Assembly: GCA_031552845.1 (NCBI GenBank)
Contig: JAVBMC010000046.1
Location: 863 to 64,862 of the forward strand
Direction of reading: 5' to 3'
DNA: 64,000 nucleotides
Source: Kiritimatiellia bacterium
GTDB lineage: Bacteria > Verrucomicrobiota > Kiritimatiellia > RFP12 > DVOR01
Shown here: positions 1 through 21,509 of the stretch, one piece after another
Layout: every line of letters starts with the position of its first letter
How positions within the stretch are numbered: position 1 is the first letter of the stretch
The notes under the pieces: model-generated
What the model was told of the DNA's origin: nothing
The model's input: only the letters and a program-made list of their open reading frames with translations
Database searches by the model: none
Translations under genes and position numbers: made by a program

Positions 1-1090
1 GGGCTATAAATCCAAAGGGTTGACGCGTACGGTGCCGGAGCAGGTGGTTTGGACAGCACCAGAGTCGCTGGAGAGGTTGCAGCAGATTGATCTTGGATTT
101 GCGTCGTTCTATCTGCCCAAGCGGGAGTGGTATACGGTTCACGCACGGCCAACGACAAACTCTCATACGTTTGCGGTGGGGATTTATGGTGATGGAGTTG
201 AAGTATGGTGTCACACTGTTGGCATGGCGGACTCGACTACGACTGAGTTTGCGGGGCAGCTTGGAGTAGAGAAGGCTGGCTTTGTGGATATTGAACTATT
301 TCTCGCGCAAACGCCGCCGGTATCGTGGCGCGAAGTCTTCAGTTTATCAAAAGAAGAGTTCACGATGCGGCTTGTCTATTTGACGATGAAGACCACAATG
401 TGTAGTTATCATCAATATATCGCTGAAGGTCCTCATTGCCGAGGACTTGGGGGTGGCGGGACATCTAACAGTAGCGCATTGGAGTTGACGGGAAAGCTGG
501 GATCCACATCAATTGTTTTGTATCTAGGCTCTCCAGATAATAAAGTCGAGGCATTAGCCAATATCATTGGCGGCACATTTACTTTCAAGGAGGATGTGCC
601 AGCAGAAGAGACCCCACTACGGCAGGCGGCATTCGTGGAACGGGTGCGGAAAGGCGAGGGCGATGATGCGCGGTTTATTGTTTTGAATCTAAAAGCGATG
701 CCGACGTTTCCGCTGGCGGATGCTTTAAAAGCTGCGGAGAGGCTGTTGGCGGCAGAAGGAATAGAGCGGCAATGCGCTTGGGCAGATTCGATGTTGTCCC
801 GCGATGGCGATGGATGGCTCTTGCGCTATGGGCCGAACAAAGAGGAGGGGTTTGGAGTGATTGTCACACCGGATTCGGCGCGGTTGATCAAAGACAGGCA
901 TTTGGCTGTTGAGTACGTGCCGTCACAGCCGATTGAGGATGTGCTGCCATTGATTGAACAAACTCCGGAACGGTTCACCGTCAGCGTCTATTCATCATAC
1001 GGAGAAAAGTGGGAGGCGCAGGTTTATGAAAGAGGCAACGGACATCCCAACACGGTATCATTGATTTCACCGCAGGATAAAACGGAGTAG
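1..1090 (+). CDS. Membrane-anchored paralog family member (5'-partial at window edge)
   Basis: Reading frame stays open to position 2 (GYKSKG precedes TRTVPEQ); the ORF-track start at 20 is a TTG. Shares motifs with 1094..2311 and 2844..4052: PESLE.LQRIDLGFASFYLPKREWY, AAFVERVRKGEGDDARFIV, MPTFPLADALKA, DGWLLRYGP. Confidence 0.7.
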   Translation, partial: GYKSKGLTRTVPEQVVWTAPESLERLQQIDLGFASFYLPKREWYTVHARPTTNSHTFAVGIYGDGVEVWCHTVGMADSTTTEFAGQLGVEKAGFVDIELFLAQTPPVSWREVFSLSKEEFTMRLVYLTMKTTMCSYHQYIAEGPHCRGLGGGGTSNSSALELTGKLGSTSIVLYLGSPDNKVEALANIIGGTFTFKEDVPAEETPLRQAAFVERVRKGEGDDARFIVLNLKAMPTFPLADALKAAERLLAAEGIERQCAWADSMLSRDGDGWLLRYGPNKEEGFGVIVTPDSARLIKDRHLAVEYVPSQPIEDVLPLIEQTPERFTVSVYSSYGEKWEAQVYERGNGHPNTVSLISPQDKTE

Positions 1091-1093
1091 AGA

Positions 1094-2311
1094 ATGCGTA
1101 TGTGTAAATTATGGCGTGGCATTGTTTATACGGCAATTGGGATAGTCCTGCTGGTGGTGTACGCGTATTACGGGTGGCGGATTTATGCGGTGGGGAAATT
1201 GGAGCGGGCATCGCGGGGTATCACGAAGTCTGTACCGGAGCATATGATGTGGAACGCACCGGAATCGTTGGAGAATCTGCAACGGATTGATCTTGGGTTC
1301 GCGTCGTTCTATTTGCCTCAGCGGGAGTGGTATATTATCCGAGCACTACCTGCGACATATAATCCGTCTACATCTTTTCTTGTGAGTATTTATGGGGAAG
1401 GGTTTTGGGTGCAACTGCTGAACGCAAGGGTCCCAAAGGAGGTGTATGTCCCGACGTTGGGCAAGACGTTGTCTGGCGGGGCAGAGGATTCTATATGGCT
1501 CTACTCGTTGCCACCGATCTCGTTAAGGGAGTTATTCTTTTTGCCGCATGATCAGTTTGTGAGCAGGGTGGCGTGCCTAAGTGAAAAAGATAGGGCATTT
1601 GGTGAAGGTGATCAGTATATTTTTGAGGGTCCTCATTCGCGAGGATATGGAAGAGTGGAAAAAGAAAGCTGGGGGCGTGGTGCCTTGGATGTGTGTGGCA
1701 ATCAGAATCCGCTGTCGGTATTCCTTATGTTTCGCGTGCTGAAAGAAAGCGGGCTGGCTCCGGAGTCTTTGCCGACGTTGATAGGCGGTACATTTGTCGT
1801 GGCTCCTGAGGCAAACATTGAAGAGGCACAGGTAGCTCAAGCAACATTTGTAGAGCGGGTGCGCAAGGGTGAAGGGGATGATGCGAGATTTATTGTTATG
1901 AATGAACGAACGATGCCGACGTTTCCGTTGGCGGATGCGTTAAAGGCTGGGAGAAAAGCCTTGCCGCCAGAATTGGCGGGGTTGCCATGTGTGAGCGCGC
2001 GTTCGGTGTTGTGCCGCGAGGATGACGGATGGTTCTTGGAGTATGGGAGTACTGTAGAGGGGAGGCAGGCGGTATTGGTGTCCTCAGAGGTGACGAAACT
2101 GATTAAGATAGTTTATTCCACGACGGAAGGTGTGCCGATTTGCCCAATGGAACAAATTGAATCGTTGCTTCAGCAGCAGCCCGATCGTTTTAAAACACGC
2201 GTGGAATGGCGTAATAACGAATGGAGGGCGTTGGGGTATTATACTGCCGATGGTGGGTTTAGCAGCATCAAGGAAGTTTTAGTGCCGACGCCATCTTCCC
2301 CCAGCCCTTAA
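1094..2311 (+). CDS. Membrane-anchored paralog family member B (unknown function)
   Basis: 405 aa with an N-terminal TM helix (IVYTAIGIVLLVVYAYYGW); alignable along its whole length with the other two copies. Confidence 0.75.
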   Translation: MRMCKLWRGIVYTAIGIVLLVVYAYYGWRIYAVGKLERASRGITKSVPEHMMWNAPESLENLQRIDLGFASFYLPQREWYIIRALPATYNPSTSFLVSIYGEGFWVQLLNARVPKEVYVPTLGKTLSGGAEDSIWLYSLPPISLRELFFLPHDQFVSRVACLSEKDRAFGEGDQYIFEGPHSRGYGRVEKESWGRGALDVCGNQNPLSVFLMFRVLKESGLAPESLPTLIGGTFVVAPEANIEEAQVAQATFVERVRKGEGDDARFIVMNERTMPTFPLADALKAGRKALPPELAGLPCVSARSVLCREDDGWFLEYGSTVEGRQAVLVSSEVTKLIKIVYSTTEGVPICPMEQIESLLQQQPDRFKTRVEWRNNEWRALGYYTADGGFSSIKEVLVPTPSSPSP

Positions 2312-2381: not shown

Positions 2382-2834
2382 ATGAAGTACCATTTAATTT
2401 CTGTGAGGGATTGTCCTGAATATCTTGAGCGTGCGGCGGAGTATTTTTCAGCGAAGTGGGATGTTGGCTACAGGGTTTATTTTGACAGCATCAAGCACAG
2501 TATCACTACGCCGAGTCCGCTGCCGCGGTGGTATCTGTTGGTGAATGATGGTGATGAGATTGTCGGCTGTTATAGTTTGGTCACAAATGATTTTAACAGC
2601 AGGCAGGATTTGTGGCCGTGGTTTTGTGCGTTGTATGTCGAGGAATCTGCGCGCGGGCAGAAGCTCGGGTCCATGATGCTTGAGCATGGTAAATGTGAGG
2701 CGAAGAAACTCGGCTTTGACACGGTGTATCTGGCGACTGATCTCGTGGGCTACTATGAAAAGTATGGCTTTACTTATCTGGCGCAGTGTTACGGGCTCGA
2801 TAATGAACAGCGTGTGTATGTGGCAACAGTCTGA
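2382..2834 (+). CDS. GNAT family N-acetyltransferase
   Basis: 150 aa. Acetyl-CoA binding-like core (CALYVEESARGQKLGSMMLEHGKCEAKKLGFDTVYLAT..YYEKYGF). RBS AAAGGATAAG precedes the ATG. Confidence 0.75.
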   Translation: MKYHLISVRDCPEYLERAAEYFSAKWDVGYRVYFDSIKHSITTPSPLPRWYLLVNDGDEIVGCYSLVTNDFNSRQDLWPWFCALYVEESARGQKLGSMMLEHGKCEAKKLGFDTVYLATDLVGYYEKYGFTYLAQCYGLDNEQRVYVATV

Positions 2835-2843
2835 GATTTAATT

Positions 2844-4052
2844 ATGCAAAAGAAGTTAGGACGAATCATCTTGTACGTAGTGGTGGGAGTATCACTGTTG
2901 TTGACGTGCGCGTATTATGGGTGGCGGATTTATGCGGTGGAAAAATTAGCGAGGGCATCGCAGGGCATCACGAAGTCTGTGCCGGAGCATGTGGTATGGA
3001 GCGAGCCGGTGTCGAAGGAAGGATTGCAGCGGATTGATGTAGGATTCGCTTCGTTCTGCGTGCCGAAGCGGGAGTGGTATACTGTGTACGCCAAATCGGT
3101 GAAGGAGCCGCCGCATTGGTTTGATGTCAGTATTTTTGGCGCTGATTTTATGGTACACTTGATGAATGTTTGGGTGCCGGAGCAGGGAGCTCTTGAAGTG
3201 CCAGGCGGGGTGATTGGCGATGGAGTGAGAGATTTTATGCAGCTTTATCAGACGCCGCCGTTGTCATGGCGGGAGATATTTTGTTTGTCGAATAGGGAGT
3301 TTCTGACACGGGTGAGTTGGCTAACGTTAAGGACTGAAGCGTGGATGCCCAATGGGACTACTTTTACGGGACCTTATTGCGAGGGAACGTTTGAAGTTTC
3401 CCCCTGGACGTCGGATGGCGGGTTGCTTGAGATTGGCGGGCTTCAGAAACCGACATCAATGACGATGGCATTTTATTGCTTGGAGGAAGGAGCTTTGCGT
3501 CCGGAATCGTTTGCAGAGTTGTTGGGGAGTACGTTTGTTTTTAATGACGAAGTGGACGTTTCTGATAAGCGGGTGCTGCAGGCGGCATTCGTCGAGCGGG
3601 TGCTGAAGGGCGAGGGCGATGATGCACGGTTTATTATGATGAACGTAAAGGCGATGCCGGTATTTCCGCTGGCGGATGCGTTGAAGGCGGCGAAGAAGTT
3701 GTTGGCGGCTGAGGGATTGGAGCGCCCATGCGTTTCGGCGAGTTCGACGTTATGCCGAGAGAGTGATGGTTGGCTGTTGAGATATGGACCAACCAAGGAA
3801 GAGGGATTCGCAGTGCTCGTGACGCCGGATTCGGTGCAGTTAATCAAAGATGCCTTTCTGGCCGACGAGGGCGTTCCTGCCCAGCCGATCGAAGAGGTGC
3901 TGCCATTGACCAAGCAAACCCCAGAACGCTTCGCTGTTGGCGTACGTTGGTATGGGGGGAAGTGGGATGCAAGGGTTTACGAGGCTGGCAATTGTGATCT
4001 GGGTTATGTGTCATTGGAGACTCTGCAGGAGTCGGCGGCGTCAACTCCCTAA
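2844..4052 (+). CDS. Membrane-anchored paralog family member C (unknown function)
   Basis: 402 aa with N-terminal TM (IILYVVVGVSLLLTCAYYGWRIYAV) and the same conserved blocks as copies A and B. The 3' flank CCTAAGTTGTGTAAGTTTGATT is nearly identical to the 3' flank of copy B. Confidence 0.75.
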   Translation: MQKKLGRIILYVVVGVSLLLTCAYYGWRIYAVEKLARASQGITKSVPEHVVWSEPVSKEGLQRIDVGFASFCVPKREWYTVYAKSVKEPPHWFDVSIFGADFMVHLMNVWVPEQGALEVPGGVIGDGVRDFMQLYQTPPLSWREIFCLSNREFLTRVSWLTLRTEAWMPNGTTFTGPYCEGTFEVSPWTSDGGLLEIGGLQKPTSMTMAFYCLEEGALRPESFAELLGSTFVFNDEVDVSDKRVLQAAFVERVLKGEGDDARFIMMNVKAMPVFPLADALKAAKKLLAAEGLERPCVSASSTLCRESDGWLLRYGPTKEEGFAVLVTPDSVQLIKDAFLADEGVPAQPIEEVLPLTKQTPERFAVGVRWYGGKWDARVYEAGNCDLGYVSLETLQESAASTP

Positions 4053-4183: not shown

Positions 4184-7100
4184 ATGAAGCGGGTCATTGT
4201 TTTGGCGTGGGTGTGTGCGTGGTCAATGTTGGGGTTTGCGGAGGCGTTGAATGTCAGCGGCTTTACGCGGAAAATGAATATTACATTCAGCGGCTGTGCG
4301 AATGAGTCAGTGCCGTTGACTAATTTTCCGGCACTCGTTGAGTTTCCTGTGGGGTTTGATTACAGCGGGTTTATGTCGGCAAATGGCGACGATTTACGGT
4401 TTGCAGATGTAGCGGGCAATGAGCTGAGTTATGAGATCGATACGTGGGACACGAGCGGCCGGTCGTTGGTCTGGGTGCGGGTGCCGGAGTTGGTGAAGGA
4501 TACGGTGATTACGGTGTATTGGGGTAAGCCTTTGCCTGCACCGGTGTATGAAGATGATGCCAATGTCTGGTCGAGTGGTTATTTGGCGGTGTATCATTTC
4601 TCGGCAGGGCGGGAGATGAAGGATTCGTCGCGCTATGGAAATGATTTGACGACGAAGGTGGGCGTCACGCAGGGTGCCGGAGGTTTGTTGGGCGCGGCAC
4701 CGCAGTTTGCAACGGCACCGACGGGAGCCAAGGGGCATTATTATTCGGCACCGCATTCGGATTCTCTGGGGGCAGCTTCGAAGGAGTTGACGCTGGAGGG
4801 GTGGACGTTTGACACGAATGCAACATCGCAGAATGATTGGCACCGGACAATGGTGACAAAGCGTAAAGATGCAAATACAGCGGTCGAATATGGGTTTGGG
4901 CTATTTAAGCTGGGGTCAACTACGGCGTCTGCGAATCTGAAGTGGAATCACAACAGCGGATCAACTCGAACGGGTTTTGCGGAGGGGTCGGCTGTGAATC
5001 AGTGGGTGCATATCGCCAGTACGTTTAATGCTGAGGCGGCGGAGCCGCGCGCGAGTCTGTATGTTAATGGTGCGTTGCTGAAGACGGGGAACAATGCCGC
5101 GACGACCATTCCTCAGACCACGATGTCGCCGTTGTATATCGGTGTGCTGGATCCGGCTGCAGCGGGGTGCTGGGTGGGCCAGCTGGATGAGATTAGGATT
5201 TCGAACGTCGCGCGTTCGGCGGAGTGGATGGCAGCAACAGCGCAGACGGCGAAGTCTCCTGCAGCGTTTGCGGTTAACTCGACTGTGGAGATAGTTGTCA
5301 CGGAGGAGCCTGTCGCGGAGATTATGTTGATTGATGTCCTGCCGGAAGGGGTTTCGCTGAATGGCGTGTTGGGAGCAGATGGTGGTGCGGCGACTTCGTT
5401 GAAGCTGTGCTATGGGCGAATCAATGGCGGCGAAACGCTTGCCGAGTGGGAGGGGGTTGAGGACTTGGGCGTACAGCCGATTGGTGTATTCTCAACTATG
5501 ATTGAGCAGTCCGAGTTGCGGTATGACAAACAGTATTACTGCCGTTTGTATGCGGAGAATGCGAATAGTGTTGCGGTGTGGAGTCCTGTAAAGACGTTTG
5601 TGACATGGGGTGTGCCGGTTCTGTCCGATATGTTCGCCTATGGCACGCAAACGGCGATCGAGACGGGCATCACGCTGACGGACTTGGGTGCAGCCCCGTC
5701 GGTGACGGTAAAGTTATATTGGGGCACTGCGTCTGATGATCTTGAGTTGATTCAGAGCTGGCCGGACTTGACGGCTGCTCAGGAACTGACGTTTTCCCCC
5801 CCGGATGTTGTTCAGGATGTCGCTTACTATTGTCAGTTTACGGTAGAGGGTTTGTTGCCGGGCGATGATGAGGTGACGGTTGTGGCGTCAGAAGTGTTGG
5901 AGGCTTCAGTCCTGCAGGGCAAGCATGGCGTGTGGACTTCGGCGCTGGATGGTAATTGGATCGATGTGGCGAATTGGCAGGATGGAATCATCGCGACAGG
6001 GGCAACGTATACGGCGACGATTTCTGCGGATCTCACTGCGAATCGTGTTATCACGTTGGGCGGAGGCGGGTGGACGGTTGGACATCTCGCGGCGAGCAAT
6101 ACGTCGGCAACGGTCGTCAATCGTTCGTGGACATTGGCCGCGCCAACTCAAGAATTCATAACGTATGATGCGGGCGGCCAGCCGAGTATTGTTGATGTGG
6201 GCAGCAATACGGTTCTTATTTCGGGCATCTTTACCGCCAAGAATGACATCATCAAACGCGGCCCCGGTATTTTCCGTTTGGTCAGCCGCAATAATGGTAT
6301 AGTGGCGCGGTTCCTAAACACAATTTGGGTGGAGGAAGGAACCTTTGGAATTAACGAACCTTTCTGTTTGGAGGGGATGACTGTAGCACTAGGCGGGGCG
6401 GATGAATCTGTGACGGTCAATTCAACCGAGAATTCGTTGACGGGAACGCTTGGGCAAGAAGCGAACACTACCGGGTTACGTAATGGCGGGAAAATCAAAG
6501 TGCTTGCGGGAGGCTCCGGCAAGATTGAGTTCCGATACTACTCATCTCCAAATGACGTGCTCTATTGGCCGCCTATTGAACTGGGCAAGACCGTGCATGT
6601 GCATACGGAATCAGCTAACACCTTCTCATTGGGCGGGCGCATCAGCGGCGCAGGTGGGTTTTATAAGACGGGGGCGGGGAAGTTTTTTCTCTACAACAAT
6701 CAGAACAGTTTCAGCGGCCCGATTACGGTGTCACAAGGTTCGTTGTTGGTCTGGATTTACGGTAGTGCAATTCCTGCCGGCAAGCGGATAGTTCTCGGTG
6801 ATGAAAGCACGGGTAACTCTGCGGTTTATTTCCAAGTGTCCGGCGATACATCGGTTGGCAGTGATCGTACGTTTGTATTTACGGATACTGGGAGCACCGG
6901 CGGGGCGGGCTTTGCTAAATGCTGGGGGCATACGGGAGATTCCGCTATTCAAGGTGCTGTTCAGATTGATAGGAATATTACGATTGCGAATGCGACCGAC
7001 ACCAGTAGACATACGTATGCATTTGCCGGCGTGATTTCGGGCGTTGGTAGAGTAGCTTATACATCGGATGTCGCAAAGGCGGCTACGATTACGCTGTCCG

Positions 7101-7513
7101 GACGCAATACGTACGAGGGCGGTTCGATCATCAACAGCGGCACGGTGATTGTCTCAAACAATGGTTGTCTGGGCACGGGCGATGTGACGTTGACACACAC
7201 CAATTCAACTTTGAAGCTGAGTACCAGTGCCGAGAGCAACAATGCTGACTTCAATGGCATTTCTGATACTGCAACTCTAAGCATGATAGCCGGCAGCAAG
7301 ATTGATTTCTCCGGCATTGCAGGCGAAGATAAGAAACTGGTTGCTGAGAACGTCGGCAAGTTCTATCTTGATGGTAAGTTGATGTTCCGCGGCACGTATG
7401 GTGCGACAGGGAGCGGCGCACGTTATATCAATGATGATTTGTTTGTTGGTGCGGCGGGGGTTCTGCAGGTAACTGATGGTCCTGCTCCGGAAACAATCTT
7501 GTTTGTGCAATAA
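4184..7513 (+). CDS. Large secreted protein: DUF2341-like N-terminal domain, LamG/concanavalin-like domain and beta-helix/autotransporter-associated repeat region
   Basis: Signal peptide MKRVIVLAWVCAWSMLGFAEA. DUF2341-like block FPALVEFPVGFDYSGFMSANGDDLRFADVAGNEL..SLVWVRVPEL. LamG-like block LDEIRISNVARSAEWM. The C-terminal half is Gly/Thr/Asn-rich beta-strand repeats. Strong RBS GAAGGAG. The last ~50 aa are paralogous to the C-terminus of 8916..10613. Confidence 0.8.
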   Translation: MKRVIVLAWVCAWSMLGFAEALNVSGFTRKMNITFSGCANESVPLTNFPALVEFPVGFDYSGFMSANGDDLRFADVAGNELSYEIDTWDTSGRSLVWVRVPELVKDTVITVYWGKPLPAPVYEDDANVWSSGYLAVYHFSAGREMKDSSRYGNDLTTKVGVTQGAGGLLGAAPQFATAPTGAKGHYYSAPHSDSLGAASKELTLEGWTFDTNATSQNDWHRTMVTKRKDANTAVEYGFGLFKLGSTTASANLKWNHNSGSTRTGFAEGSAVNQWVHIASTFNAEAAEPRASLYVNGALLKTGNNAATTIPQTTMSPLYIGVLDPAAAGCWVGQLDEIRISNVARSAEWMAATAQTAKSPAAFAVNSTVEIVVTEEPVAEIMLIDVLPEGVSLNGVLGADGGAATSLKLCYGRINGGETLAEWEGVEDLGVQPIGVFSTMIEQSELRYDKQYYCRLYAENANSVAVWSPVKTFVTWGVPVLSDMFAYGTQTAIETGITLTDLGAAPSVTVKLYWGTASDDLELIQSWPDLTAAQELTFSPPDVVQDVAYYCQFTVEGLLPGDDEVTVVASEVLEASVLQGKHGVWTSALDGNWIDVANWQDGIIATGATYTATISADLTANRVITLGGGGWTVGHLAASNTSATVVNRSWTLAAPTQEFITYDAGGQPSIVDVGSNTVLISGIFTAKNDIIKRGPGIFRLVSRNNGIVARFLNTIWVEEGTFGINEPFCLEGMTVALGGADESVTVNSTENSLTGTLGQEANTTGLRNGGKIKVLAGGSGKIEFRYYSSPNDVLYWPPIELGKTVHVHTESANTFSLGGRISGAGGFYKTGAGKFFLYNNQNSFSGPITVSQGSLLVWIYGSAIPAGKRIVLGDESTGNSAVYFQVSGDTSVGSDRTFVFTDTGSTGGAGFAKCWGHTGDSAIQGAVQIDRNITIANATDTSRHTYAFAGVISGVGRVAYTSDVAKAATITLSGRNTYEGGSIINSGTVIVSNNGCLGTGDVTLTHTNSTLKLSTSAESNNADFNGISDTATLSMIAGSKIDFSGIAGEDKKLVAENVGKFYLDGKLMFRGTYGATGSGARYINDDLFVGAAGVLQVTDGPAPETILFVQ

Positions 7514-7613
7514 TAACAGAATGGATGTAAGGGAGGGATGAGGCAAATCAGCAACGGGCCTTCGCCCGAAACCGTGCTGATGGTGAATTAAGCAAGAAGG
7601 GTTGGGGGCAGTT

Positions 7614-7650
7614 GCCGTCATGGTGCCTGCCCCTTTTTATTTCCACTCGA
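7614..7650 (+). terminator. Rho-independent terminator candidate
   Basis: GGGGCAG..(loop)..CTGCCCC followed by TTTTTATTT, downstream of the 4184..7513 gene. Confidence 0.5.
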
Positions 7651-7807
7651 TTCGTGCGGAAACTCTGAGCCTCATCGCAGAACGCCAATAGAAAATCGCA
7701 GGTAACAAGCGGGAAAGAGGAGGCAGTGTTTGAACTTTTCCAACTTGAGGCTTTCTTTTTGCTTTACAAGTGGACTAAAATGGTCTACATTGGACTTGTT
7801 TTAGTTT

Positions 7808-8902
7808 ATGAGGGGTAAGGTTGTGCGTTTTTCCAGCAGGCAGTTAGAGCATGAGTTTAGGAGGCGGATTGTGACCGGCGTCTATTTGCCGGGTGAGCGG
7901 ATTCCGGCGGAGCGCAATGTTGCAGAGGAGTTTGCGTGCAGCCGGGGGACTGTGTCGAAGGTGATGGCGGCGTTGGTGGCTGATGGGTTGTTGGAACAGG
8001 TGCAGGGGGCGGGAGCTTTTGTGACGGAGGCTGCGGGGCGGCCGCAGAGGTGTGAGCCGGTGGTTGCGCAGGGAGAGGGAAAGGTGATTCATTATTTGAG
8101 TCCTGCGGTGGATGGGCGGGTGGTGAATTCTCGGAACTGCGTACTGGAGGGGTTGCATGAGGTGTTAGTGCCTCAAGGGTATACGGTGGCGGTCAGTTTT
8201 TATGGGAGCGGGAAGGAGTATGCGGCGGCGATGGGGCGGCTGCAGAGTGCGGGGGCGGCGGGGGCGGTGATTTGGGCGCAGCCGGATCAGCAGGGGGTGG
8301 CGGTGTTGAAGCGGCTATTGAGTAGCGGGTTGCCTGTGGTTTTGATTGATACGTATCTGCCGGAGGTGGCGTGTGATTGGGTGGTGTCGGATAATGCAAG
8401 GGGTGCCGAGGCGATGGTGGGGCATTTGGCGGCGCGGGGGCATCGGGAGATTTGTTATTTGACGGCGGCACCGGATCGATCGTCGGTGAGTGACCGTTTG
8501 GCGGGTTTTTTGCGCGGGATGGTGGCGAATCGATTGCCTGTCGAGGCGGCTTCGGTGGTGGAGGTTGCGGGGGGCGAACTGGCGACTAGGCTGGCGGCTG
8601 TTTTGCAGCGGCGGAAACGCCCGACGGCGTTGATGGCGTCGCATGATGTATTGGCAATTGAGGTGTTGGAGTTTCTGAAGCGCAAGGGGATCTGCGTGCC
8701 GCAGGAGATGGCTGTAGCGGGGTTTGATGGGATTGAGTCGGGTACGTTGACGTCGCCGGCATTGACGACGTTGAAGCAGGATTTTAGGGCGATGGCTGTG
8801 CATGCCGCGAATATTTTGCCGGAGCGTTTGAATGGATTGCCGCCGCAGATTGTTGTGCAGCGGATGATTCAACCGCGCTTGGTGATACGTCGATCTACAT
8901 GA
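7808..8902 (+). CDS. GntR-family transcriptional regulator with LacI/PBP-type sugar-binding C-terminal domain
   Basis: N-terminal wHTH (RIPAERNVAEEFACSRGTVSKVMAALVADGLLEQVQGAGAFV). C-terminal periplasmic-binding-protein fold motifs (LPVVLIDTY, GHREICYL, VAGFDGIE..LTTLKQD). Confidence 0.8.
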   Translation: MRGKVVRFSSRQLEHEFRRRIVTGVYLPGERIPAERNVAEEFACSRGTVSKVMAALVADGLLEQVQGAGAFVTEAAGRPQRCEPVVAQGEGKVIHYLSPAVDGRVVNSRNCVLEGLHEVLVPQGYTVAVSFYGSGKEYAAAMGRLQSAGAAGAVIWAQPDQQGVAVLKRLLSSGLPVVLIDTYLPEVACDWVVSDNARGAEAMVGHLAARGHREICYLTAAPDRSSVSDRLAGFLRGMVANRLPVEAASVVEVAGGELATRLAAVLQRRKRPTALMASHDVLAIEVLEFLKRKGICVPQEMAVAGFDGIESGTLTSPALTTLKQDFRAMAVHAANILPERLNGLPPQIVVQRMIQPRLVIRRST

Positions 8903-8915
8903 AGGAGTAGTGAGT

Positions 8916-10613
8916 ATGAAAGCAAGAATATGGTTGGAAGTAGTGGTGTGCGGGCTCATCGCGGCAAGCATTGGCTTTGCGGCAGATGTTGAGGAGCGGA
9001 ACGGCACGTGGATTGCCACGGGGAATGGCAATTGGATGGATGGAGGCAATTGGATGGATGGGTTGGTTGCGACCGGGGCGACTTATACGGCTGCGTTGTT
9101 GGCGCCGATTACAGCGGAGCGTACGATTACGCTTGGCGGAGCGGGGTATGTGATCGGACATTTGGCCGTCACGAATACCAGCACGGCTTCAGCGCGCTGG
9201 GTTTTGTCGAGCAACGGCGGTAAGGAGTTCATGTTTTATGACAATGGTGAGGAGGCGGCAGAGATCGAGATTGGTTCTAATTCAACGCTGCGGACGGGGT
9301 TCTTTACGGCGGCGGGAAATGTTGTCAAGAGCGGCGTGGGTCAGTTGCAGCTGGCTAATGCTAATACCAATGCGCTGGCACAATTTAATAACACGCTGTT
9401 TGTACAGGAGGGGTGGCTGCAATTGGATAATGGTTCGGCAGTTGCACGGATGTCTCAGGTTGTGTTGGGAGGGGGCGACCGTGATGTCACGATTTCATGT
9501 GGTAATTTCGGCGGCAGCGATTCGGCCTCCGATGGCGTGCTGGGGTCGTCATTCCGTGTGCCGGCGGAAGGCTCCGGGCAGGTTACGTTGTTTTGGAATA
9601 CCGCGAATAATATCAACTATCGACAGAGTTGGACGGTTGATAAGAAGCTGGTCTTGGATGTCCGTACTATGGGCGTGTTGTTTCGTAACAACGTCTCAGG
9701 GAGCGGGATGCTTTATAAAACAGGCGCGGGGAGTGTCCGTTTGATGAACAGTAGTCCTTTCAGCGGGGCGGTAGTCGTTGCGCAGGGCAGCTTCTTATTT
9801 GAGAATGGATTCACGTTTTTGAACGCAGCAGAACAGCGCCTGACTGTTGGCGATGAATCCAGCAGTGCGGCGAGTGCGTCTATCGGAGTTGGAAAGGGTG
9901 CGACCCTTGCGGCGGGCGCGTTCATTCATTTTACAGACTGGGTCGGGAATAACGCGCAGATTACGACGTATAATTCCGGCAACAACGATACGATGTCAAC
10001 GATTGCTTCGTCCATACAGATTGACCGTAATGTTTCTGTTTGCAACAACCAAATCAATCCCGGGTCGAGTCAGCCCAATAAGGTTGGCATTTTATTGTCA
10101 GGCATTATCAGCGGTACGGGCGGCTTAGTGTTTAACAACGGAGCCGCGCACATCACCAAGAACTTGCAGCTGAATGCGCAAAACACTTACAGCGGAGGCA
10201 CGGTTATTTCGAATTGCATCCTGCGCGTGCGCGACAATGACGGCAACGCAAATCTGTCGGCAGGTGGCAAACTGGGTACGGGGGATGTGACGATTGGAGA
10301 AAACGGTATTTTGCGGTTGTATGTCCCTAGCGTTGCCGTGCGTGAGATGAATGCGATTGATGATGATGCGTCGCTGATCATTGAGGAGGGGGGGTGCCTT
10401 GATGCAATGACGTGGGATAATTATAGTTTGACCGGTGGCTCGCCGGTTGAGAAGGTGAAGAATCTGAAGTTGGACGGAGTGTGGCAATATCGCGGCACTT
10501 ACGGCGGAACCGGCAGTGGTGCGCAAAAGGAGCTGCCTGATTATTTTGGAGCGAAGGTTGTGGTTCGCGTCACAGAGGGTTTTCAAGGACCTTCGGTGTT
10601 GGTGCTGCAGTAG
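8916..10613 (+). CDS. Secreted beta-helix / autotransporter-associated beta-strand repeat protein (paralog of the C-terminal half of 4184..7513)
   Basis: ATG at 8916 with RBS GAAGGAG 8 nt upstream; the ORF-track start at 8910 is a GTG. Signal peptide. Shared blocks with the 1109-aa protein: ATGATYTA, ITLGG.G..GHLA..NTS, and the C-terminal RGTYG.TGSGA...Q-stop. Confidence 0.75.
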   Translation: MKARIWLEVVVCGLIAASIGFAADVEERNGTWIATGNGNWMDGGNWMDGLVATGATYTAALLAPITAERTITLGGAGYVIGHLAVTNTSTASARWVLSSNGGKEFMFYDNGEEAAEIEIGSNSTLRTGFFTAAGNVVKSGVGQLQLANANTNALAQFNNTLFVQEGWLQLDNGSAVARMSQVVLGGGDRDVTISCGNFGGSDSASDGVLGSSFRVPAEGSGQVTLFWNTANNINYRQSWTVDKKLVLDVRTMGVLFRNNVSGSGMLYKTGAGSVRLMNSSPFSGAVVVAQGSFLFENGFTFLNAAEQRLTVGDESSSAASASIGVGKGATLAAGAFIHFTDWVGNNAQITTYNSGNNDTMSTIASSIQIDRNVSVCNNQINPGSSQPNKVGILLSGIISGTGGLVFNNGAAHITKNLQLNAQNTYSGGTVISNCILRVRDNDGNANLSAGGKLGTGDVTIGENGILRLYVPSVAVREMNAIDDDASLIIEEGGCLDAMTWDNYSLTGGSPVEKVKNLKLDGVWQYRGTYGGTGSGAQKELPDYFGAKVVVRVTEGFQGPSVLVLQ

Positions 10614-10649
10614 GGGTTGAGCGGGGAAAAGCTTCTAAAGGGGATAAGG

Positions 10650-13600
10650 ATGAAAAATGTAGTGTTGTGGGTTGGAATGTTGTGCGCGGTCTCCCTTTTT
10701 GCTCAGGTGCGGAATGGCGATTTCGCTAAAGGCAAAGAGGCATGGTGGGGTGAAGGCAAATGGCAGGCAGCCGACAGTGCATTGCAAGTGCAGAGCGGCT
10801 ACGTGTGCCAAGATAAGATCAGTGTCGAGGGCGGCAAGCGGTATAAGATCAGTTTTCGCGGTAAGGGGCAGGGCGCTTATGCACAACTGAGCTGGCGTGG
10901 CGGGGGCGTTGATGGCGGGTGGTATGGTCCGGCATCAGTCAAGATGGATTGGGGGAACGAAAAAGCACTGGCTCTCTGTGTCGATGGCGATGTTTGGAAG
11001 ACCTACTCTGCCGTAGTGAAAGCGCCCGCAGGGGTTAATCAGGCGTTGATTTATTTGCGCAAGATGCCGAAGTCCGAGGGCGTGGCTTACTATGATGATG
11101 TCACGCTAGTTGAAACGCAAGAGCAGGTTGTGCGTCCGGTGGGAACAGTGTTCGGCGTGATTAAGAATGGTGACTTTGCTAAAGGTAAGGAGACTTGGTG
11201 GGGCGAGGGCACATGGAATGTTGTGAATCAAGCCTTGTGCGTGCAGAGTGGATTTGCCTGTCAGGATAATATCAACGTCGAGGGCGGCAAGCGCTATAAG
11301 CTGTCGCTGCGGATGAAGTGCGAGGGATTGCCGGAAGATGGCGCGTATGTGCAGGTGAGCTATCGCGGAGATGGCGTTGATGGCGGTTGGCGTGGTCCGC
11401 GCACGGTCAAGCTGCCGTGGGGCGGTGAGCGTGCTGTCGCAGTCGATGGGGGGACGAAGGATTGGACAACATATAGCTGCGTACTGGCGCCGCCGGATGG
11501 TGCAGAACAGATGCTGGTTTATCTGCGCAAACGTCCGAAGGTCGAGGGGACGGTATGGTATGACGATGTGACGCTGAGTGAAACGCAGGAGGCGGAGACA
11601 ACCGCGGCGGCGCTTCGGCGTGAAGTGTTGGCAAAGCAGGTCTTTGGCGGTGCGCCGGGTAACGGCGAGTATCGCATTGTGGTCTCTGAGAATTGTGATT
11701 TGATTGAGCTGAATGCCGCGAAGGAGCTGGCAGAGTATTTGGGGCAAATCACGGGCAAACATTATCTGCCGTTGCTCAAGGATACGGATAAAATCCAGCC
11801 GCCGTATATCGCAGTCGGGCGCGGCAACAAACTGCTGTCGACGAAGCCCGCGTGGGAGAAGTTAGGTGCAGATGGATTTGTCGTGCAGTCGGATGGAAAT
11901 GTTTATTTAGCCGGGGGTACGCCGGGGGCGACGATGTATGCGGTGAATTGGTTCCTCGATCATCAATTAGGCGTGAAGTGGCTGGCGCCGGATTATACGT
12001 TTGTGCCTAAGCGCAGCCAGTTGAGCATTTCAAAGTCCTCGACGGTGCAGGTGCCGCGCTTCAATTTTCGTCAGATTCTCGGGCATGAAGGACAGGATAA
12101 GGCGTTTGCCGCGCACAACCTGCTCAATGGCAGTTCGCATGGTGCTTACAGCATTATTCCTCCGGCCGAAATTGACCACTTTGATTATTCCTGGCAGCGT
12201 CCCGGCATGACGGCTTCGTTCTATCAGCTGCTGCCGCCCAAGGATCATCAGGCCAAGAATCCACAGTGGTATGCGGGCGGACAGCTGGCGATGATGAATG
12301 ACGGCATGCGCGCCGCACTGGCGGATGCGATTGGCCGCCGTCTCGCTAAAGAACCCAACTATGGCGACTATTGGTTTGGATTGATGGATAACGATTGGGG
12401 CTGGGATATGGACGGCGAGAGCCGCGCCTTCGCACAGAAGCACGGTTGTGTTCCATCGGCACCGCTCTTTGATATGGTGAAGGATGTCGCACGGCGCGTG
12501 CAGCAGAAATATCCGAAAGCTAAGTTTGCATCCAACGCTTATCATTGGGGATTCAATCCGCCTAGAAACTTGGAGATTCCTGACAGCATCCGTGTGTTTC
12601 CGATGACCATTCATCTTGACTACAGCACACCGCTCAATGTTGGACGCAACGTCCATCTTGGCCGCGACTTGGAGCAGTGGAATGCGACTGCCAAGAATAT
12701 CCTCTTGTGGGATCACGTTGTCAACTTCCATGGGTTCATCCAACCGACGCCTAATCTTTATCCTATTGCGGAAACGATCAAATGGCTGGATGGGTTGAAG
12801 AACATTCAAGGCTACTTTGCAGAGGCCAGCTGGAATACGAAGGGGTCGGAGTTCGCCTCTTTGCGCACGTGGCTGATGGCGCGGCTGTTGTGGGACCCGA
12901 AGGCCGATTACAAGAAAGCGGTTGAAGAATATTGTGATGCCTACTTCGGTGCCGCCGGAAAGATCATGAGGGATTACATTGACTATATGCATGTGTATTC
13001 CGTGCAGACGCGCTCGCCCATCTGGGAGAAGGTCAATGTTGATGCGCCGATGCTGACGCTTGACTTCATCGTCAAGGCCGATGCGATGATGGCGCAGGCG
13101 GCGCAGTTGGTGAAGGATGACCCCGTCCGCTTGAAGCACGTAAACCAAGTCCGCGTGACGATTGACTATGTGGCGCTGTTGCGCCGACAGGAGTTTGAAC
13201 GTGAAGCTGCGAAGCGTGGCATCAAATGGAACTCCGATCGTGCCAACCGTACGGCTCGCGCCAAGGCGATTGCCGAAGCTGAAGGCATCAAGCAATACCG
13301 CCAGAGCGGTCCCATGAGTGAGTTCTTTGAGATTATCGAGATGGACAGAAAGCCCTCTGCTCTGCCCGTCGAGTTTGCTAACGTCAAGCCGGAGAATATC
13401 CGCGAAGTGCAAGACCTTGGGTTCAACCGTTATTACAATACGACTGTGCTTGTGACTGACCCAAAGGCATCTGACGGAATCACCGCGCGGCTCGAAGGTA
13501 AGAACGGCGCCCCGCTCATTCAAGCCAAACACCACCTCCTGCCCGAAGAGGGTGAGTGGGATGTTTACGCGCAAGTCCGCGTTGAAGCAGACGGTGCAGC

Positions 13601-13826
13601 GGATGATGATAAAGTCGGCGGCGTCGGTTCCATGCCGCCGATGGGCGTCTTCACTGAGATGAAGTGGAAGGATTTCAAAGATGGCGAGTATCACCTCGTC
13701 AAAGCCAAGGGAGGCCCCTTCAGCTACTCCGGCGACGAAGGCGCCATCTGTTACGTCTGTGGTTCCGGCAATGCTAAAACCAAGTACATCTACGTTGATC
13801 GTTTTATCTTTGTGCGCGTGAAGTAA
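10650..13826 (+). CDS. Secreted DUF4838-like (glycoside-hydrolase-like) protein with two tandem N-terminal CBM-like modules
   Basis: ATG at 10650 after AAAGGGGATAAGGA; the track start at 10617 is TTG. Signal peptide MKNVVLWVGMLCAVSLFAQ. Two ~140-aa internal repeats (approx. 10707..11121 and 11163..11585; NGDFAKGKE.WWGEG...YYDDVTL.E). Then a DUF4838-like core (YLAGGTPGATMYAVNWFLDHQLGVKWLAPDY). Confidence 0.7.
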   Translation: MKNVVLWVGMLCAVSLFAQVRNGDFAKGKEAWWGEGKWQAADSALQVQSGYVCQDKISVEGGKRYKISFRGKGQGAYAQLSWRGGGVDGGWYGPASVKMDWGNEKALALCVDGDVWKTYSAVVKAPAGVNQALIYLRKMPKSEGVAYYDDVTLVETQEQVVRPVGTVFGVIKNGDFAKGKETWWGEGTWNVVNQALCVQSGFACQDNINVEGGKRYKLSLRMKCEGLPEDGAYVQVSYRGDGVDGGWRGPRTVKLPWGGERAVAVDGGTKDWTTYSCVLAPPDGAEQMLVYLRKRPKVEGTVWYDDVTLSETQEAETTAAALRREVLAKQVFGGAPGNGEYRIVVSENCDLIELNAAKELAEYLGQITGKHYLPLLKDTDKIQPPYIAVGRGNKLLSTKPAWEKLGADGFVVQSDGNVYLAGGTPGATMYAVNWFLDHQLGVKWLAPDYTFVPKRSQLSISKSSTVQVPRFNFRQILGHEGQDKAFAAHNLLNGSSHGAYSIIPPAEIDHFDYSWQRPGMTASFYQLLPPKDHQAKNPQWYAGGQLAMMNDGMRAALADAIGRRLAKEPNYGDYWFGLMDNDWGWDMDGESRAFAQKHGCVPSAPLFDMVKDVARRVQQKYPKAKFASNAYHWGFNPPRNLEIPDSIRVFPMTIHLDYSTPLNVGRNVHLGRDLEQWNATAKNILLWDHVVNFHGFIQPTPNLYPIAETIKWLDGLKNIQGYFAEASWNTKGSEFASLRTWLMARLLWDPKADYKKAVEEYCDAYFGAAGKIMRDYIDYMHVYSVQTRSPIWEKVNVDAPMLTLDFIVKADAMMAQAAQLVKDDPVRLKHVNQVRVTIDYVALLRRQEFEREAAKRGIKWNSDRANRTARAKAIAEAEGIKQYRQSGPMSEFFEIIEMDRKPSALPVEFANVKPENIREVQDLGFNRYYNTTVLVTDPKASDGITARLEGKNGAPLIQAKHHLLPEEGEWDVYAQVRVEADGAADDDKVGGVGSMPPMGVFTEMKWKDFKDGEYHLVKAKGGPFSYSGDEGAICYVCGSGNAKTKYIYVDRFIFVRVK

Positions 13827-16615: not shown

Positions 16616-16897
16616 GCATCCCCGTTGACCCCATTGAGTGACTCGTCACTGATTCGGATCTTGAGGCTCGGAGTTCCAAGCGAATCTCCGCCCCCCGACA
16701 TACGAGAGCTTAAGCTCCAAGGAGCCATCAACTATAAAGACTGCCCGTTTGGCCGGCGTGCAGTCCAGATGCCAGGGGGATATCCACCAATCGCACGAGT
16801 GTGCTGTATGGTTTATTCGGAATCGCTTTGGCGTCGGGTTGACAGACGCCGCCGACTGCCAGCATCAACTATAGGCGGCAAGAAAGAACAAGACATC

Positions 16898-17638
16898 ATG
16901 TCAACAACAACAAACGAGCCCACCAGCTCGATTCAGGTACAAATCGTCAAGCCCGTCTCCGGCGAGCTTGTTAAGGACGGACTGCAGACGGTGAAAGCCA
17001 TCTCCCGCAGCACCGTCTCCAACGCCCAGCTCCTCGACTTCATGGTCGGCGACGGCGGCGGCATCAGCAAACCTCAAGCCAAGGCTTTTTACGAAGCCTA
17101 TGCAGACACCGTCAGCCGGTTGCTCCTCGCGGGACACAACATCCCCGTGGGCGACCTCGGTTACCTGCACGTCACGGCCAAAGGCGTGTTTGATGCGGAA
17201 GGTAAACCCGTGGAAGGTAAAGAGCTGATCTTCAAGATCAAGTTCCTGCCCAAGAAGGTCGTCAAAAACCTTCTGGCGAACCTGCCCTATGAAACCGTCG
17301 AAGCTCACGACCGCCAGCCCCGTCTGAATACGGTGACCGACAGCATTACGCTGAACGTCAACTCCGTCGTCACACGCGGGATGTCGGCCAAGCTCAACGG
17401 CAAGAACCTCAAATTCCACCCCCTCGTGGCTGACGAAGGCCTCTTCTTCGTTCCCGTCGAGGGTGGAGCTGCGGTCAAGGTCACCCAATTCCTCGACAAC
17501 CGCGACGTACGTCTCACGTTCAACGTGCCGGGTGAACTCACGGAAGGCACCAACTACCGCCTCGAAGTGCGCAAACGCTTCAGCGGGTGCAAGGCCTTAC
17601 GTATCGGAACCCTTGAGAACACGCTCAGCGTGAACTAA
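16898..17638 (+). CDS. HU-like DNA-binding protein (Bacteroidetes-type HU_2 N-terminus) with DUF4469-like Ig-fold C-terminal domain, copy 1
   Basis: 246 aa starting MSTTTNEP. Overall architecture and the C-terminal block HPLVADEGLFFVPVEGG match the DUF4469-type family. The ORF-track upstream extension (16625) runs through a leader that is conserved at the nucleotide level but not in reading frame. Confidence 0.55.
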   Translation: MSTTTNEPTSSIQVQIVKPVSGELVKDGLQTVKAISRSTVSNAQLLDFMVGDGGGISKPQAKAFYEAYADTVSRLLLAGHNIPVGDLGYLHVTAKGVFDAEGKPVEGKELIFKIKFLPKKVVKNLLANLPYETVEAHDRQPRLNTVTDSITLNVNSVVTRGMSAKLNGKNLKFHPLVADEGLFFVPVEGGAAVKVTQFLDNRDVRLTFNVPGELTEGTNYRLEVRKRFSGCKALRIGTLENTLSVN

Positions 17639-18502: not shown

Positions 18503-19429
18503 ATGATTAGACGAAGTCTAGGTCGTTTTGTGCCGATATTTTATTTATTATGCGTATTTGGATTACCGGTCTTTCCAGATCAGGCCATCGTTGACAAATC
18601 GCTGCTGGCGGATGATTCGTTGTTGATCCGCTCGCCATCAGACTTACAGCTGTTGTTGTATCAATGGCAGCAGCTGTCGGTGCCGTCGGTAGAACCGTCG
18701 GTTAAAGATGCAGGCATGTTTATATTTTCGCCGGATGGCATGGAATCGGAGTCGTTCTTTAACGCGCTATTGCCTGATCCGAGTCATGCGAATGCTTCGG
18801 TTGTTTTCGTAGAGGATGATGATTTGTCGGGGTATACGTTTTTTTATGATTTGCTGGGTGATCCGATTTATGCGCTTCCATTGCTAGATACCGTAACCGA
18901 TGGCGACGATGGCATCACTTTACGGGTATCGCTGTGGACATTCTTCAATCGAAACCGTAGTGAAACAGAGTTTGAAACTTTGCTGAGTAATTTACAACGT
19001 AGCCGCGGTATCTCAGGGAACAGCCGTAAGCTGGAACGGTTGGCACGCCTGATGTTGGAGCGCAATGCAATTCTGAGCCGTCCGGCGGCGGCCTTTGCGG
19101 AGACCAATGATTTCACGGAACGCCAGCGAGCGCTCGAGCCGAATGATGAACCGAGTTTATCAAAGGTCGTTTATGTGGATGCCAAGCAAGGGAATGATTC
19201 GCTCTCCGGCCGGGCGGCATCTGTAAAGAGCGGGCATGAAGGCCCTAAGCGAAGCGTGCGCAGCGGTGTTGCCGAGTTGGTTGAGGAAGATGTACTAGTC
19301 ATTCGTGAAGGACATTATGCCGAAGATCTGAACCTGCGTGATAAAGATGTGCGGGTGCGGATTGAAGGGACGGTTGTGTTAAGAGATGTCATTGATAGCG
19401 ATACAGCGAAAGAGCAGGTGACCCCATGA
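18503..19429 (+). CDS. Secreted hypothetical protein ending in the first turns of a right-handed beta-helix (DUF1565-like) motif
   Basis: ATG at 18503 with strong RBS AAAGGAGG. Signal peptide MIRRSLGRFVPIFYLLCVFGLPVFP. C-terminal VVYVDAKQGNDSLSGRA...GVAELVEEDVLVIREGHYAEDL resembles the start of pectate-lyase-like beta-helix proteins, but the ORF stops after ~60 aa of that domain. Confidence 0.6.
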   Translation: MIRRSLGRFVPIFYLLCVFGLPVFPDQAIVDKSLLADDSLLIRSPSDLQLLLYQWQQLSVPSVEPSVKDAGMFIFSPDGMESESFFNALLPDPSHANASVVFVEDDDLSGYTFFYDLLGDPIYALPLLDTVTDGDDGITLRVSLWTFFNRNRSETEFETLLSNLQRSRGISGNSRKLERLARLMLERNAILSRPAAAFAETNDFTERQRALEPNDEPSLSKVVYVDAKQGNDSLSGRAASVKSGHEGPKRSVRSGVAELVEEDVLVIREGHYAEDLNLRDKDVRVRIEGTVVLRDVIDSDTAKEQVTP

Positions 19430-20412
19430 GTATGCGATGGAATAAATGCATGTTACCCGGCGTGCTGGGATGCTGCTTGAGATTGAGTGTGCATGGAGAC
19501 ACGTTGGAGACTGACGCGGTGAAGGCAGATGAAGTTATTTTGCAGACGCTGTCATTTCGGCCGACGGTAACAACCGATGCATTCGCGCATTATCGTTTTG
19601 TAACGTCTGCTACTGTGACCAACGATACAACAGCCAATAAAAATATTTTGATCAGATCTAGTGCTGTTTGGTCCGCTACCGGTTATGCGGGCGGTGTTGG
19701 CGGTGGACTATCATTTGATGGAACGGCAGACTATGTGTATACCCCCACTGCCAGAGCTGTAACGCCAATGCCGACGTGGAACGCCTATTCCGTCAGCATG
19801 TGGTTTTTTCACAATGGCGGCGGTAAATTTGATGCGACACATTATCACCCTTTGTTGGACAAGAGCACCACAAAAATCGGCACCTTTCTAGCCTTAGACC
19901 CCACCGGTATTTCCGGTCCGGTTGGCTCGTTGACATTTCAAACTTTTGGAGTAACGCCTATTTGTTCCATGCGGGATGCTACTAAAAACTATATGGATAA
20001 CACTTGGCATCACGTGGTATTGATTAAAAATGATTCTAACGGGCAGTTATGGGTTGACGGTGAGCTGAAGGATCAAACTTCGGATTTGGCCTGTGTGACG
20101 AATACTTCCGGTCTTTTCTTCGGGAGACGCTCCACATCTTTTGAGAGTGGTTCAACTGCTCCCAGCTGGAGTGGGCTGATGGATGAGATTCAAATATTCA
20201 AACGTGCGTTGGAGCCTTCAGAGGTGACGAATCTCTTTGTGCATAATGGACCGTTTCCACTGAAGACGGCGCTTGAGGTAACCACTAATCTAACGGTGAA
20301 TGGTGATGTCCACGTAGGAGGCCGTTTGTCTTTCACAGGTGAGAAGATGCAGTTGCGGGCTTCAGGTGATGTGGAGTGCGGGATTTTCAGCAACGGTGTG
20401 ACTGTTCCCTAA
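19426..20412 (+). CDS. Secreted LamG/concanavalin A-like lectin domain protein 1
   Basis: Start overlaps the upstream stop (ATGA). LamG_3-like motifs: LSFDGTADYVYTP, WHHVVLIKNDSNGQLWVDGEL, SGLMDEIQIFKRALEPSEVTNLF. C-terminal module L.V.G.V..G...........GDVECGIFSN. Confidence 0.75.
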   Translation: MSMRWNKCMLPGVLGCCLRLSVHGDTLETDAVKADEVILQTLSFRPTVTTDAFAHYRFVTSATVTNDTTANKNILIRSSAVWSATGYAGGVGGGLSFDGTADYVYTPTARAVTPMPTWNAYSVSMWFFHNGGGKFDATHYHPLLDKSTTKIGTFLALDPTGISGPVGSLTFQTFGVTPICSMRDATKNYMDNTWHHVVLIKNDSNGQLWVDGELKDQTSDLACVTNTSGLFFGRRSTSFESGSTAPSWSGLMDEIQIFKRALEPSEVTNLFVHNGPFPLKTALEVTTNLTVNGDVHVGGRLSFTGEKMQLRASGDVECGIFSNGVTVP

Positions 20413-20423
20413 TGGAGTCTATC

Positions 20424-21479: not shown

Positions 21480-21509
21480 TCTGATGACTCTTAATATTGG
21501 TGTGATTTT

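Follow-up and report, generated by a model that had tools for sequence, protein, structure and literature searches.

The tail shared by P1 and P2, two exported proteins of a Kiritimatiellia bacterium, is the closing module, so far unannotated, of a large beta-helix protein family from Kiritimatiellia, Lentisphaerae and related lineages built on the autotransporter-associated beta-strand repeat (PATR), a family with lineage-dependent endings in which the short end of P1 and P2 probably acts mainly as a cap; a small open reading frame (ORF) behind P1 that re-encodes part of this tail, here called the mini-ORF, is probably in turn a non-functional remnant of a gene end. P1 (4184..7513) and P2 (8916..10613) lie within a stretch of 64,000 nucleotides of contig JAVBMC010000046.1 (the window; G+C content 53%), and they, their terminal modules, the genes next to them and the features behind P1 are all on the + strand. 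P1 is an exported protein of 1109 aa with a signal peptide, DUF2341 (PF10102) and LamG (PF13385) domains and a PATR beta-helix (PF12951 and TIGR02601; residues ~566-1109), and P2, of 565 aa, is an exported PATR beta-helix protein with a signal peptide and a paralogue of the C-terminal half of P1. In the mechanism we propose, both would be Sec-exported PATR paralogues of a kind found in the Planctomycetes-Verrucomicrobia-Chlamydiae (PVC) superphylum, their tail would form the last rungs of the beta-helix around the core GTYGATGSGA..i.DD.F.G.GvL.V, and different endings would have been attached after this module, lineage by lineage, during evolution.

P1 and P2 are paralogous up to their ends

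A preliminary description of this DNA, made from the letters alone, had described the tail as a shared module of about 50 residues. Both ORFs exist with the endings given there (RGTYGATGSGARYINDDLFVGAAGVLQVTDGPAPETILFVQ in P1 and RGTYGGTGSGAQKELPDYFGAKVVVRVTEGFQGPSVLVLQ in P2, each before a stop; over longer stretches, FRGTYGATGSGARYINDDLFVGAAGVLQVTDGPAPETILFVQ followed by TAA TAA in P1 and YRGTYGGTGSGAQKELPDYFGAKVVVRVTEGFQGPSVLVLQ in P2), and the last 55 residues of the two proteins are indeed 45% identical, somewhat above their conservation over the whole length. However, the similarity is not confined to the tail, as the whole of P2 aligns with residues 566-1109 of P1 at 32% identity (BLASTP, E 4e-69). 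The paralogy of P1 and P2 thus extends over about 545 aa and has its end in the shared tail, which is no separate module of about 50 aa grafted onto unrelated proteins.

Both proteins belong to the PATR family, with PF12951 scores of 39.8 bits (P1) and 33.1 bits (P2) against a cut-off of 27, and TIGR02601 scores of 31.9 and 42.8 against a cut-off of 19.85. AlphaFold2 (AF2) models of P2 and of the last 230 aa of P1 are all-beta, with regular short strands as in a beta-helix, and have predicted local distance difference test (pLDDT) values of 86 and 92, respectively; in both, the final 13 residues are modelled as ordered (block means 78-87), without a helix. A Foldseek search against the PDB listed only beta-helix proteins, none of them significant (best E = 0.54), with classical type Va passengers at the top. 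In rumen and Kiritimatiellia metagenome-assembled genomes (MAGs), homologues of the N-terminal DUF2341/LamG part of P1 are encoded just downstream of PATR genes that end in VLRDDLAMPLVIRMK before the stop (L045 3254..3607, L040 3335..4720 and L068 3341..3754), so the two halves fused in P1 may be separate neighbouring genes elsewhere.

A widespread end-module with lineage-dependent endings

In a 16-sequence tail alignment the terminal module of P1 (7241..7471, with the GTYG core from 7391) follows the pattern I.D.A.L...G.IDL..GV.E.V..L.L.G....GTYGATGSGA..I.DD.F.G.GVL.V; that of P2 spans about 10341..10610 and ends in TEGFQGPSVLVLQ, directly before the stop. Searching 1.84 billion representative proteins with a profile gave 1,493 matches at E <= 1e-3. 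A profile of the two window tails alone found no match in an index of 5.8 billion proteins because this word index lacked sensitivity, and the later searches brought out relatives that do exist. With P2 as the query only three real homologues were obtained, all with canonical PEP-CTERM ends, and in all three, as illustrated by P0002 (GTYTASDLNSYFDGNYFTGTGSLQVVAVPEP), the sequence preceding the PEP-CTERM aligns with the window tails.

The matches that we fetched differ in what follows the module. In 14 of them GTYG is followed by 37-40 aa more, and the protein closes with the same kind of short end as P1 and P2; these comprise the closest full-length relatives, P0019-23 and P0027, together with P0028, P0032, P0033, P0056, P0075 (annotated from Kiritimatiellia MAGs), P0096, P0133 and P0152. 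The module is followed directly by VPEP, a transmembrane (TM) helix and RRR in P0001-3, P0034, P0040, P0067, P0068, P0104, P0119 and P0122. Several internal copies are present in P0028, P0034 and P0060, each continuing into a Pro-rich linker and the G-T-W/F-x-W start of a next module. Since it precedes PEP-CTERM and is also found inside proteins, the module as such is no sorting tag, the role that the preliminary description had suggested for the whole element of about 50 aa. Its behaviour is that of a structural module closing the beta-helix.

The same diversity of endings is seen across genomes. The exact peptide GTYGATGSG, sought in one genome per GTDB species, marked 110 loci confirmed by tblastn in named Kiritimatiellia, Lentisphaerae, Verrucomicrobiota and Planctomycetota genomes, and we classified the endings of the best 80 of these 110. 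A stop after the short end was found at 33 loci (Kiritimatiellia/-ae, Lentisphaerae/-aceae, rumen RUG and unclassified 'Verrucomicrobia bacterium' MAGs), and a direct PEP-CTERM at 6 (Verrucomicrobiae, Spartobacteria, Akkermansiaceae, Phycisphaerae and Pirellulales). About 7 loci in Planctomycetota have a dockerin-like segment plus PEP-CTERM; about 22 in Verrucomicrobiota (Luteolibacter, Akkermansiaceae and others) have a Ca-binding-like D-x-D-G-x-x-N-x-x-E-Y extension with a further domain; and at 7 loci from various lineages another module follows. Planctomycetota, Luteolibacter and Akkermansiaceae loci within this set thus all have endings other than the short one. The family is therefore wide, and the outcome that the preliminary description had named as fatal to its proposal, a tail restricted to these two paralogues, did not materialise.

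Pfam, NCBIfam and PDB sequences gave no match to the 16-sequence tail profile, and a literature search found nothing on this tail. The element is a real, widespread and previously undescribed end-module of PATR beta-helices. Among the predicted surface proteins of the PVC superphylum, PATR beta-helix proteins rank with the most abundant, and they are carried, among others, by Kiritimatiellia and Lentisphaerae of gut and rumen, which are degraders of complex glycans. As the end-module has no family model, annotation pipelines cannot separate complete from truncated proteins, and the lineage-dependent endings go unnoticed. What appears to be new is therefore the definition of an end-module family within a known kind of protein, together with a short ending at the position of PEP-CTERM.

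A short C-terminal motif at the position of PEP-CTERM

The preliminary description had also held that the tail is neither a beta-barrel nor a PEP-CTERM, LPXTG or type IX secretion system (T9SS) C-terminal domain (CTD), and this was borne out. For PEP-CTERM (TIGR02595/PF07589), P1 and P2 have no hidden Markov model match, no TM helix and no basic cluster; 6-8 residues follow P-E-T in P1 or G-P-S in P2 before the protein ends, and no PEP-CTERM-like end occurs anywhere within the window. No type Va barrel domain was matched and no sequence lies beyond the end-module in P1 or P2. Searching the 16 tails for a T9SS CTD, LPXTG or another Haft-type CTERM gave no family at E <= 1, apart from single unrelated, non-significant matches, and the Pfam and NCBIfam matches on P1 and P2 were confined to PATR, LamG and DUF2341, all upstream of the tail. 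A truncated PEP-CTERM, as might be read from P-A-P-E-T in P1 and P-S-P-E-T in the copy behind it, was considered and rejected; other short ends have no P-E.

Specificity for the extreme C-terminus is seen only in the last 7-8 residues, which are a candidate for an undescribed sorting or anchoring signal. They follow the motif G-T-h-h-x-h-[R/K/Q] (h, hydrophobic; 7-8 aa, then stop). Across 67 distinct short ends, position -7 is G in 46 and P in 13, -6 is T in 41, -5 is V, L or I in 54, -4 and -2 are hydrophobic in all 67, -3 is variable, and -1 is R or K in 47 and Q in 7. P1 closes with TDGPAPETILFVQ and the double stop TAA TAA (7472..7516), its last 8 aa fitting G/P-T-h-h-x-h-[RKQ]; the three copies in the window, PETILFVQ, GPSVLVLQ and PETVLMVN, fit the motif except for their terminal Q or N. 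In the proposed mechanism, Kiritimatiellia/Lentisphaerae-type genomes would add to the module a short linker and this motif as an amphipathic, strand-like segment that ends in the free carboxyl group, at the site that in relatives is taken by the PEP-CTERM anchor or by the strand (G-T-W-...) with which a further module begins. We infer that the main role of this short end is probably to complete or cap the beta-helix at its open end, and that it is perhaps a recognition element as well.

Several observations weigh against a role as a cap. DSSP places the last 13 residues in no beta-strand in either AF2 model, and the short strand would be dispensable for folding of the module because the PEP-CTERM homologues do without it. 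The motif is likewise found at the end of PATR proteins without the GTYG module (L001 2811..5951, L010 243..3506, L020 and L037) and of one cadherin/Big_9 protein (L010 6841..8022). A strictly terminal, usually R/K-ending and portable motif would fit a signal better than a mere cap. We give a real, if minor, chance to the alternative that these 7-8 residues form a C-terminal sorting or anchoring signal that is new and lineage-specific and that, on surface beta-helix and some other proteins of Kiritimatiellia and Lentisphaerae, replaces PEP-CTERM/exosortase, acting by strand augmentation on a putative outer-membrane or periplasmic partner. In favour of such a signal are the invariably terminal position of the motif with its fixed -2, -4 and -1 preferences, its location at the exact PEP-CTERM site of homologues, its restriction to a set of lineages, and the AF2 models, in which the motif is predicted to stay unpaired with the sheets of the monomer. 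Its presence on PATR proteins with different preceding sequence and on the cadherin/Big_9 protein points the same way: of 256 C-termini, 8 score higher than the 99.9th percentile of internal 8-mers, where 0.26 would be expected, although this enrichment is biased because the loci were chosen for their PATR neighbours, and one case is a false positive. That case is the DUF4838 protein of the window (ending FIFVRVK), which we rejected as a motif carrier as its orthologue ends in FIFVRAGE; a tetratricopeptide repeat protein of the window that ends in h-x-h-K was left as chance. Also counting against a signal are the little information that the motif holds, the Q/N ends of all three window copies where R/K would be usual, the fact that no candidate partner gene was identified, and the G-T start, whose resemblance to the first strand (G-T-W) of a following module suggests a structural origin. 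If the short end is a sorting signal, it would imply an as yet unknown surface-display route in lineages whose examined PATR proteins are without PEP-CTERM; if it is only a cap, it would still provide a useful domain definition.

A probable gene-end remnant behind P1

Downstream of the P1 stop, the DNA reads once more as a P1-like tail. This orphan copy, GGMRQISNGPSPETVLMVN plus a stop (7532..7591), lies in the frame of P1 at a distance of 78 nt: its 19 codons (7532..7588) and stop align without gaps with 7454..7510 and the P1 stop, with 9 residues identical and 8 of the 10 others conservative. The mini-ORF is the part that runs from the ATG at 7538 to the TAA ending at 7591; it starts 25 nt after the P1 stop, is preceded by AAGGGAGGG and encodes MRQISNGPSPETVLMVN (17 aa). 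The preliminary description had placed it 10 nt too far downstream, at 7548..7601, and had called it a near-copy of the final 12 residues of P1; such a peptide is indeed encoded downstream, but the copy is longer than described. Of the 72,273 stretches of 19 aa without a stop that a six-frame translation of the whole window contains, only the P1 tail and the copy reach a BLOSUM62 score of 57, so the similarity is not due to chance. When the copy was compared with 6,728 C-terminal ends (fetched proteins and locus ORFs, read stop to stop and at least 40 aa long), the P1 tail was closest (57), followed by the tail of P0020 (44).

The mini-ORF is most likely what remains of the 3' end of a related gene, and not a functional peptide. 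It would represent the last 19 codons and stop of a diverged paralogous or ancestral tail, recently orphaned when a rearrangement at the 3' end, in which a paralogue downstream was deleted or the gene end was replaced, left the copy between the P1 stop and the terminator; its apparent Shine-Dalgarno sequence and ATG would then be former Gly-Gly-Val codons. The terminator in question is an intrinsic-terminator-like hairpin, GGGGGCAG...CUGCCCC followed by the U-run UUUUUAUUU (7604..7643), which a consensus terminator scan missed because of its long loop region; the RNA fold of 7590-7650 has a free energy of -21.8 kcal/mol, with a z-score of only -1.32 against shuffled sequences. Since the hairpin lies 3' of the copy, the copy is predicted to lie within the 3'-terminal part of the P1 transcript. 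Neither Rfam nor a tRNA scan gave a match in the window, so no known RNA accounts for 7514-7800. Repeats between 7000 and 8000 are only short and at chance level, with no inverted repeats suggesting an invertible or cassette switch.

The pattern of substitutions speaks to the age of the copy. Between copy and P1 tail 25 of 57 nt differ (44%), distributed 9/3/13 over codon positions 1/2/3, and when the P1 tail was mutated neutrally by the same amount, a score of 57 or more without a stop was obtained in 2e-5 of 200,000 trials; the two copies would thus have diverged mostly while both were read as protein. These numbers make it very improbable that the copy is a recent tandem duplication of 78 nt of the 3' end of P1 that has since decayed neutrally. 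The offset of exactly 78 nt, in frame, and the P1 tail being the closest of all ends compared would suit such a duplication, but third codon positions are near saturation (13/19) whereas second positions are spared (3/19), the peptide is still similar with its stop kept, and the first 18 nt of the presumed unit are only randomly similar (7/18, by inspection). Of the two origins offered in the preliminary description, the duplication scar is consequently kept as an orphaned tail and given up as a recent, neutrally decayed duplicate, the copy having apparently evolved as coding sequence. The other origin, a peptide that mimics the tag, here a translated 17-aa product serving as a free tag copy (a decoy or regulator), is very improbable: an uninterrupted ORF that begins with ATG behind a purine-rich stretch, a position inside the P1 transcript from which re-initiation 25 nt past the stop is conceivable, and protein-level conservation relative to the P1 tail all speak for it, but the peptide has no signal peptide and would not meet the periplasmic or outer-membrane machinery, in contrast to the predicted Sec export of P1 and P2; its GGAGG ends 0-1 nt before the ATG, against a spacing of 6-10 nt for GGAG in P1, P2 and infB; the apparent ribosome-binding site and start, AAG GGA GGG ATG, align codon by codon with GCG GCG GGG GTT (Ala-Ala-Gly-Val) of the live tail; the homology reaches upstream of the ATG; and no comparable relic (<60 codons) follows about 95 other homologous loci or occurs in the syntenic relative L094, whose contig ends 535 nt upstream of the regulator gene, so that a P1 counterpart is not visible there.

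With regard to the gene-end remnant that we prefer, two points count on the other side. The relic is an intact ORF in the frame and transcript of P1, and some low-level translation by re-initiation may still occur; and close relatives of this genome were not found, either by exact protein look-up or by comparing P1 with genome and metagenome contigs, and the window's housekeeping proteins are singletons.

Other candidate orphans of the tail exist. In L001 an ORF of 62 aa (6001..6189) begins 50 nt after an intact PATR gene; in L020, a single contig, a tail orphan (about 2854..3200) runs from directly after the stop of an intact gene and is already damaged at its end; and in L003 (6001..6150; also in L004 and L005, three samples in all) a 49-aa tail ORF follows a metallophosphatase-like gene. 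L010 (4841..5107; also L011-13) has a stand-alone end-module ORF. Such stand-alone ORFs consisting only of the end-module span 49-115 aa, and those of L001, L003 and L010 are found again, unchanged in protein sequence, on contigs of other samples. Tail orphans are rare, at 1 of about 95 module occurrences in an unbiased genome scan. The mini-ORF would be an ordinary by-product of rapid PATR gene turnover. A different arrangement was noted in L006 (5639..6285; also L007-9), downstream of a GH16 gene, where two ORFs overlap by 4 nt, one of 121 aa with the PATR N-terminal motif (ANWTGGG...NWSGG) and one of 94 aa that encodes the end-module; the 94-aa product and the ORF layout are unchanged on four contigs, and the pair could be a split or miniature PATR gene.

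Genomic context

Between P1 and P2 lies a gene for a transcription regulator (7808..8902) with a GntR helix-turn-helix and a LacI-type periplasmic-binding-protein domain (Pfam), and P2, whose ATG is preceded by GGAG, is followed by a gene for a CBM4_9 and DUF4838 protein (10617..13826; Pfam), a conserved neighbour. The order regulator, PATR protein, CBM4_9/DUF4838 protein is kept in L094 (536..7433), which is metagenomic and the sole syntenic relative that was found; identity to the window is 46% for the regulator, 32% for the PATR protein P0020 and 56% for the DUF4838 protein, and the PATR gene appears to have diverged much faster than its two neighbours. The tail of P0020 (TDGPSPATLIIVQ) is closer to the P1 tail than to the P2 tail.

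Upstream of P1, three paralogous proteins of about 355-405 aa without a Pfam or NCBIfam match are encoded at 20..1090, 1094..2311 and 2844..4052, with a 150-aa ORF (2382..2834) between the second and third; two of the three share an N-terminal membrane-anchor-like segment (...YAYYGWRIYAV.KL.RAS.GITKSVPEH..W), and the C-termini are similar in all three. A run of secreted-protein genes (19426..30754) encodes two LamG proteins, a protein of 1052 aa in which bacterial TSP3 repeats are combined with a binary-toxin-B-like Ca-binding domain, and an RHS-repeat protein of 2029 aa that carries DUF6531. The proteins at 16625..17638 and 42198..42908 have similar C-terminal ends, and for the former Pfam gives DUF4469 and, below its cut-offs, HU-like DNA-binding domains.

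Comparison with known systems

The closest known system is that of the PATR proteins with a PEP-CTERM anchor (PF12951/TIGR02601 plus PF07589/TIGR02595) in Verrucomicrobiota and Planctomycetota. These share with P1 and P2 a signal peptide, the N-terminal G-T-W...NW motif, the PATR helix and the same GTYGATGSGA...GvL.V module, and P0001-3, P0040, P0067 and others among them are true homologues. Unlike them, P1 and P2, together with the proteins closest to them, continue for only 37-40 aa beyond GTYG, have no TM helix or Arg cluster and, for the most part, no PEP motif; the P-E-T of P1 and of the relic is not conserved within the short-ended subfamily. With type Va passengers such as pertactin, Ag43 and the IgA1 protease, P1 and P2 have in common a right-handed beta-helix and PATR repeats; however, they lack a match to a C-terminal beta-barrel translocator or an autochaperone domain, and the module ends the protein.

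The beta-signal of outer-membrane proteins has the consensus polar-x-G-x-x-hydrophobic-x-hydrophobic, and its last residue is usually aromatic. The short end resembles it in having G at -7 and hydrophobic residues at -4 and -2, which gives the G-x-x-h-x-h spacing, and departs from it in that the short-ended proteins are predicted soluble beta-helices rather than barrels, with R/K/Q instead of F/Y/W as the last residue. As for the copy behind P1, the orphan 3' fragments left by turnover of surface-protein paralogues (L001, L020 and L003-5) share with it a tail-only fragment directly behind an intact gene, whereas the copy in the window differs from them in comprising only 19 codons, lying in frame and being most similar to the tail of the very gene that it follows.

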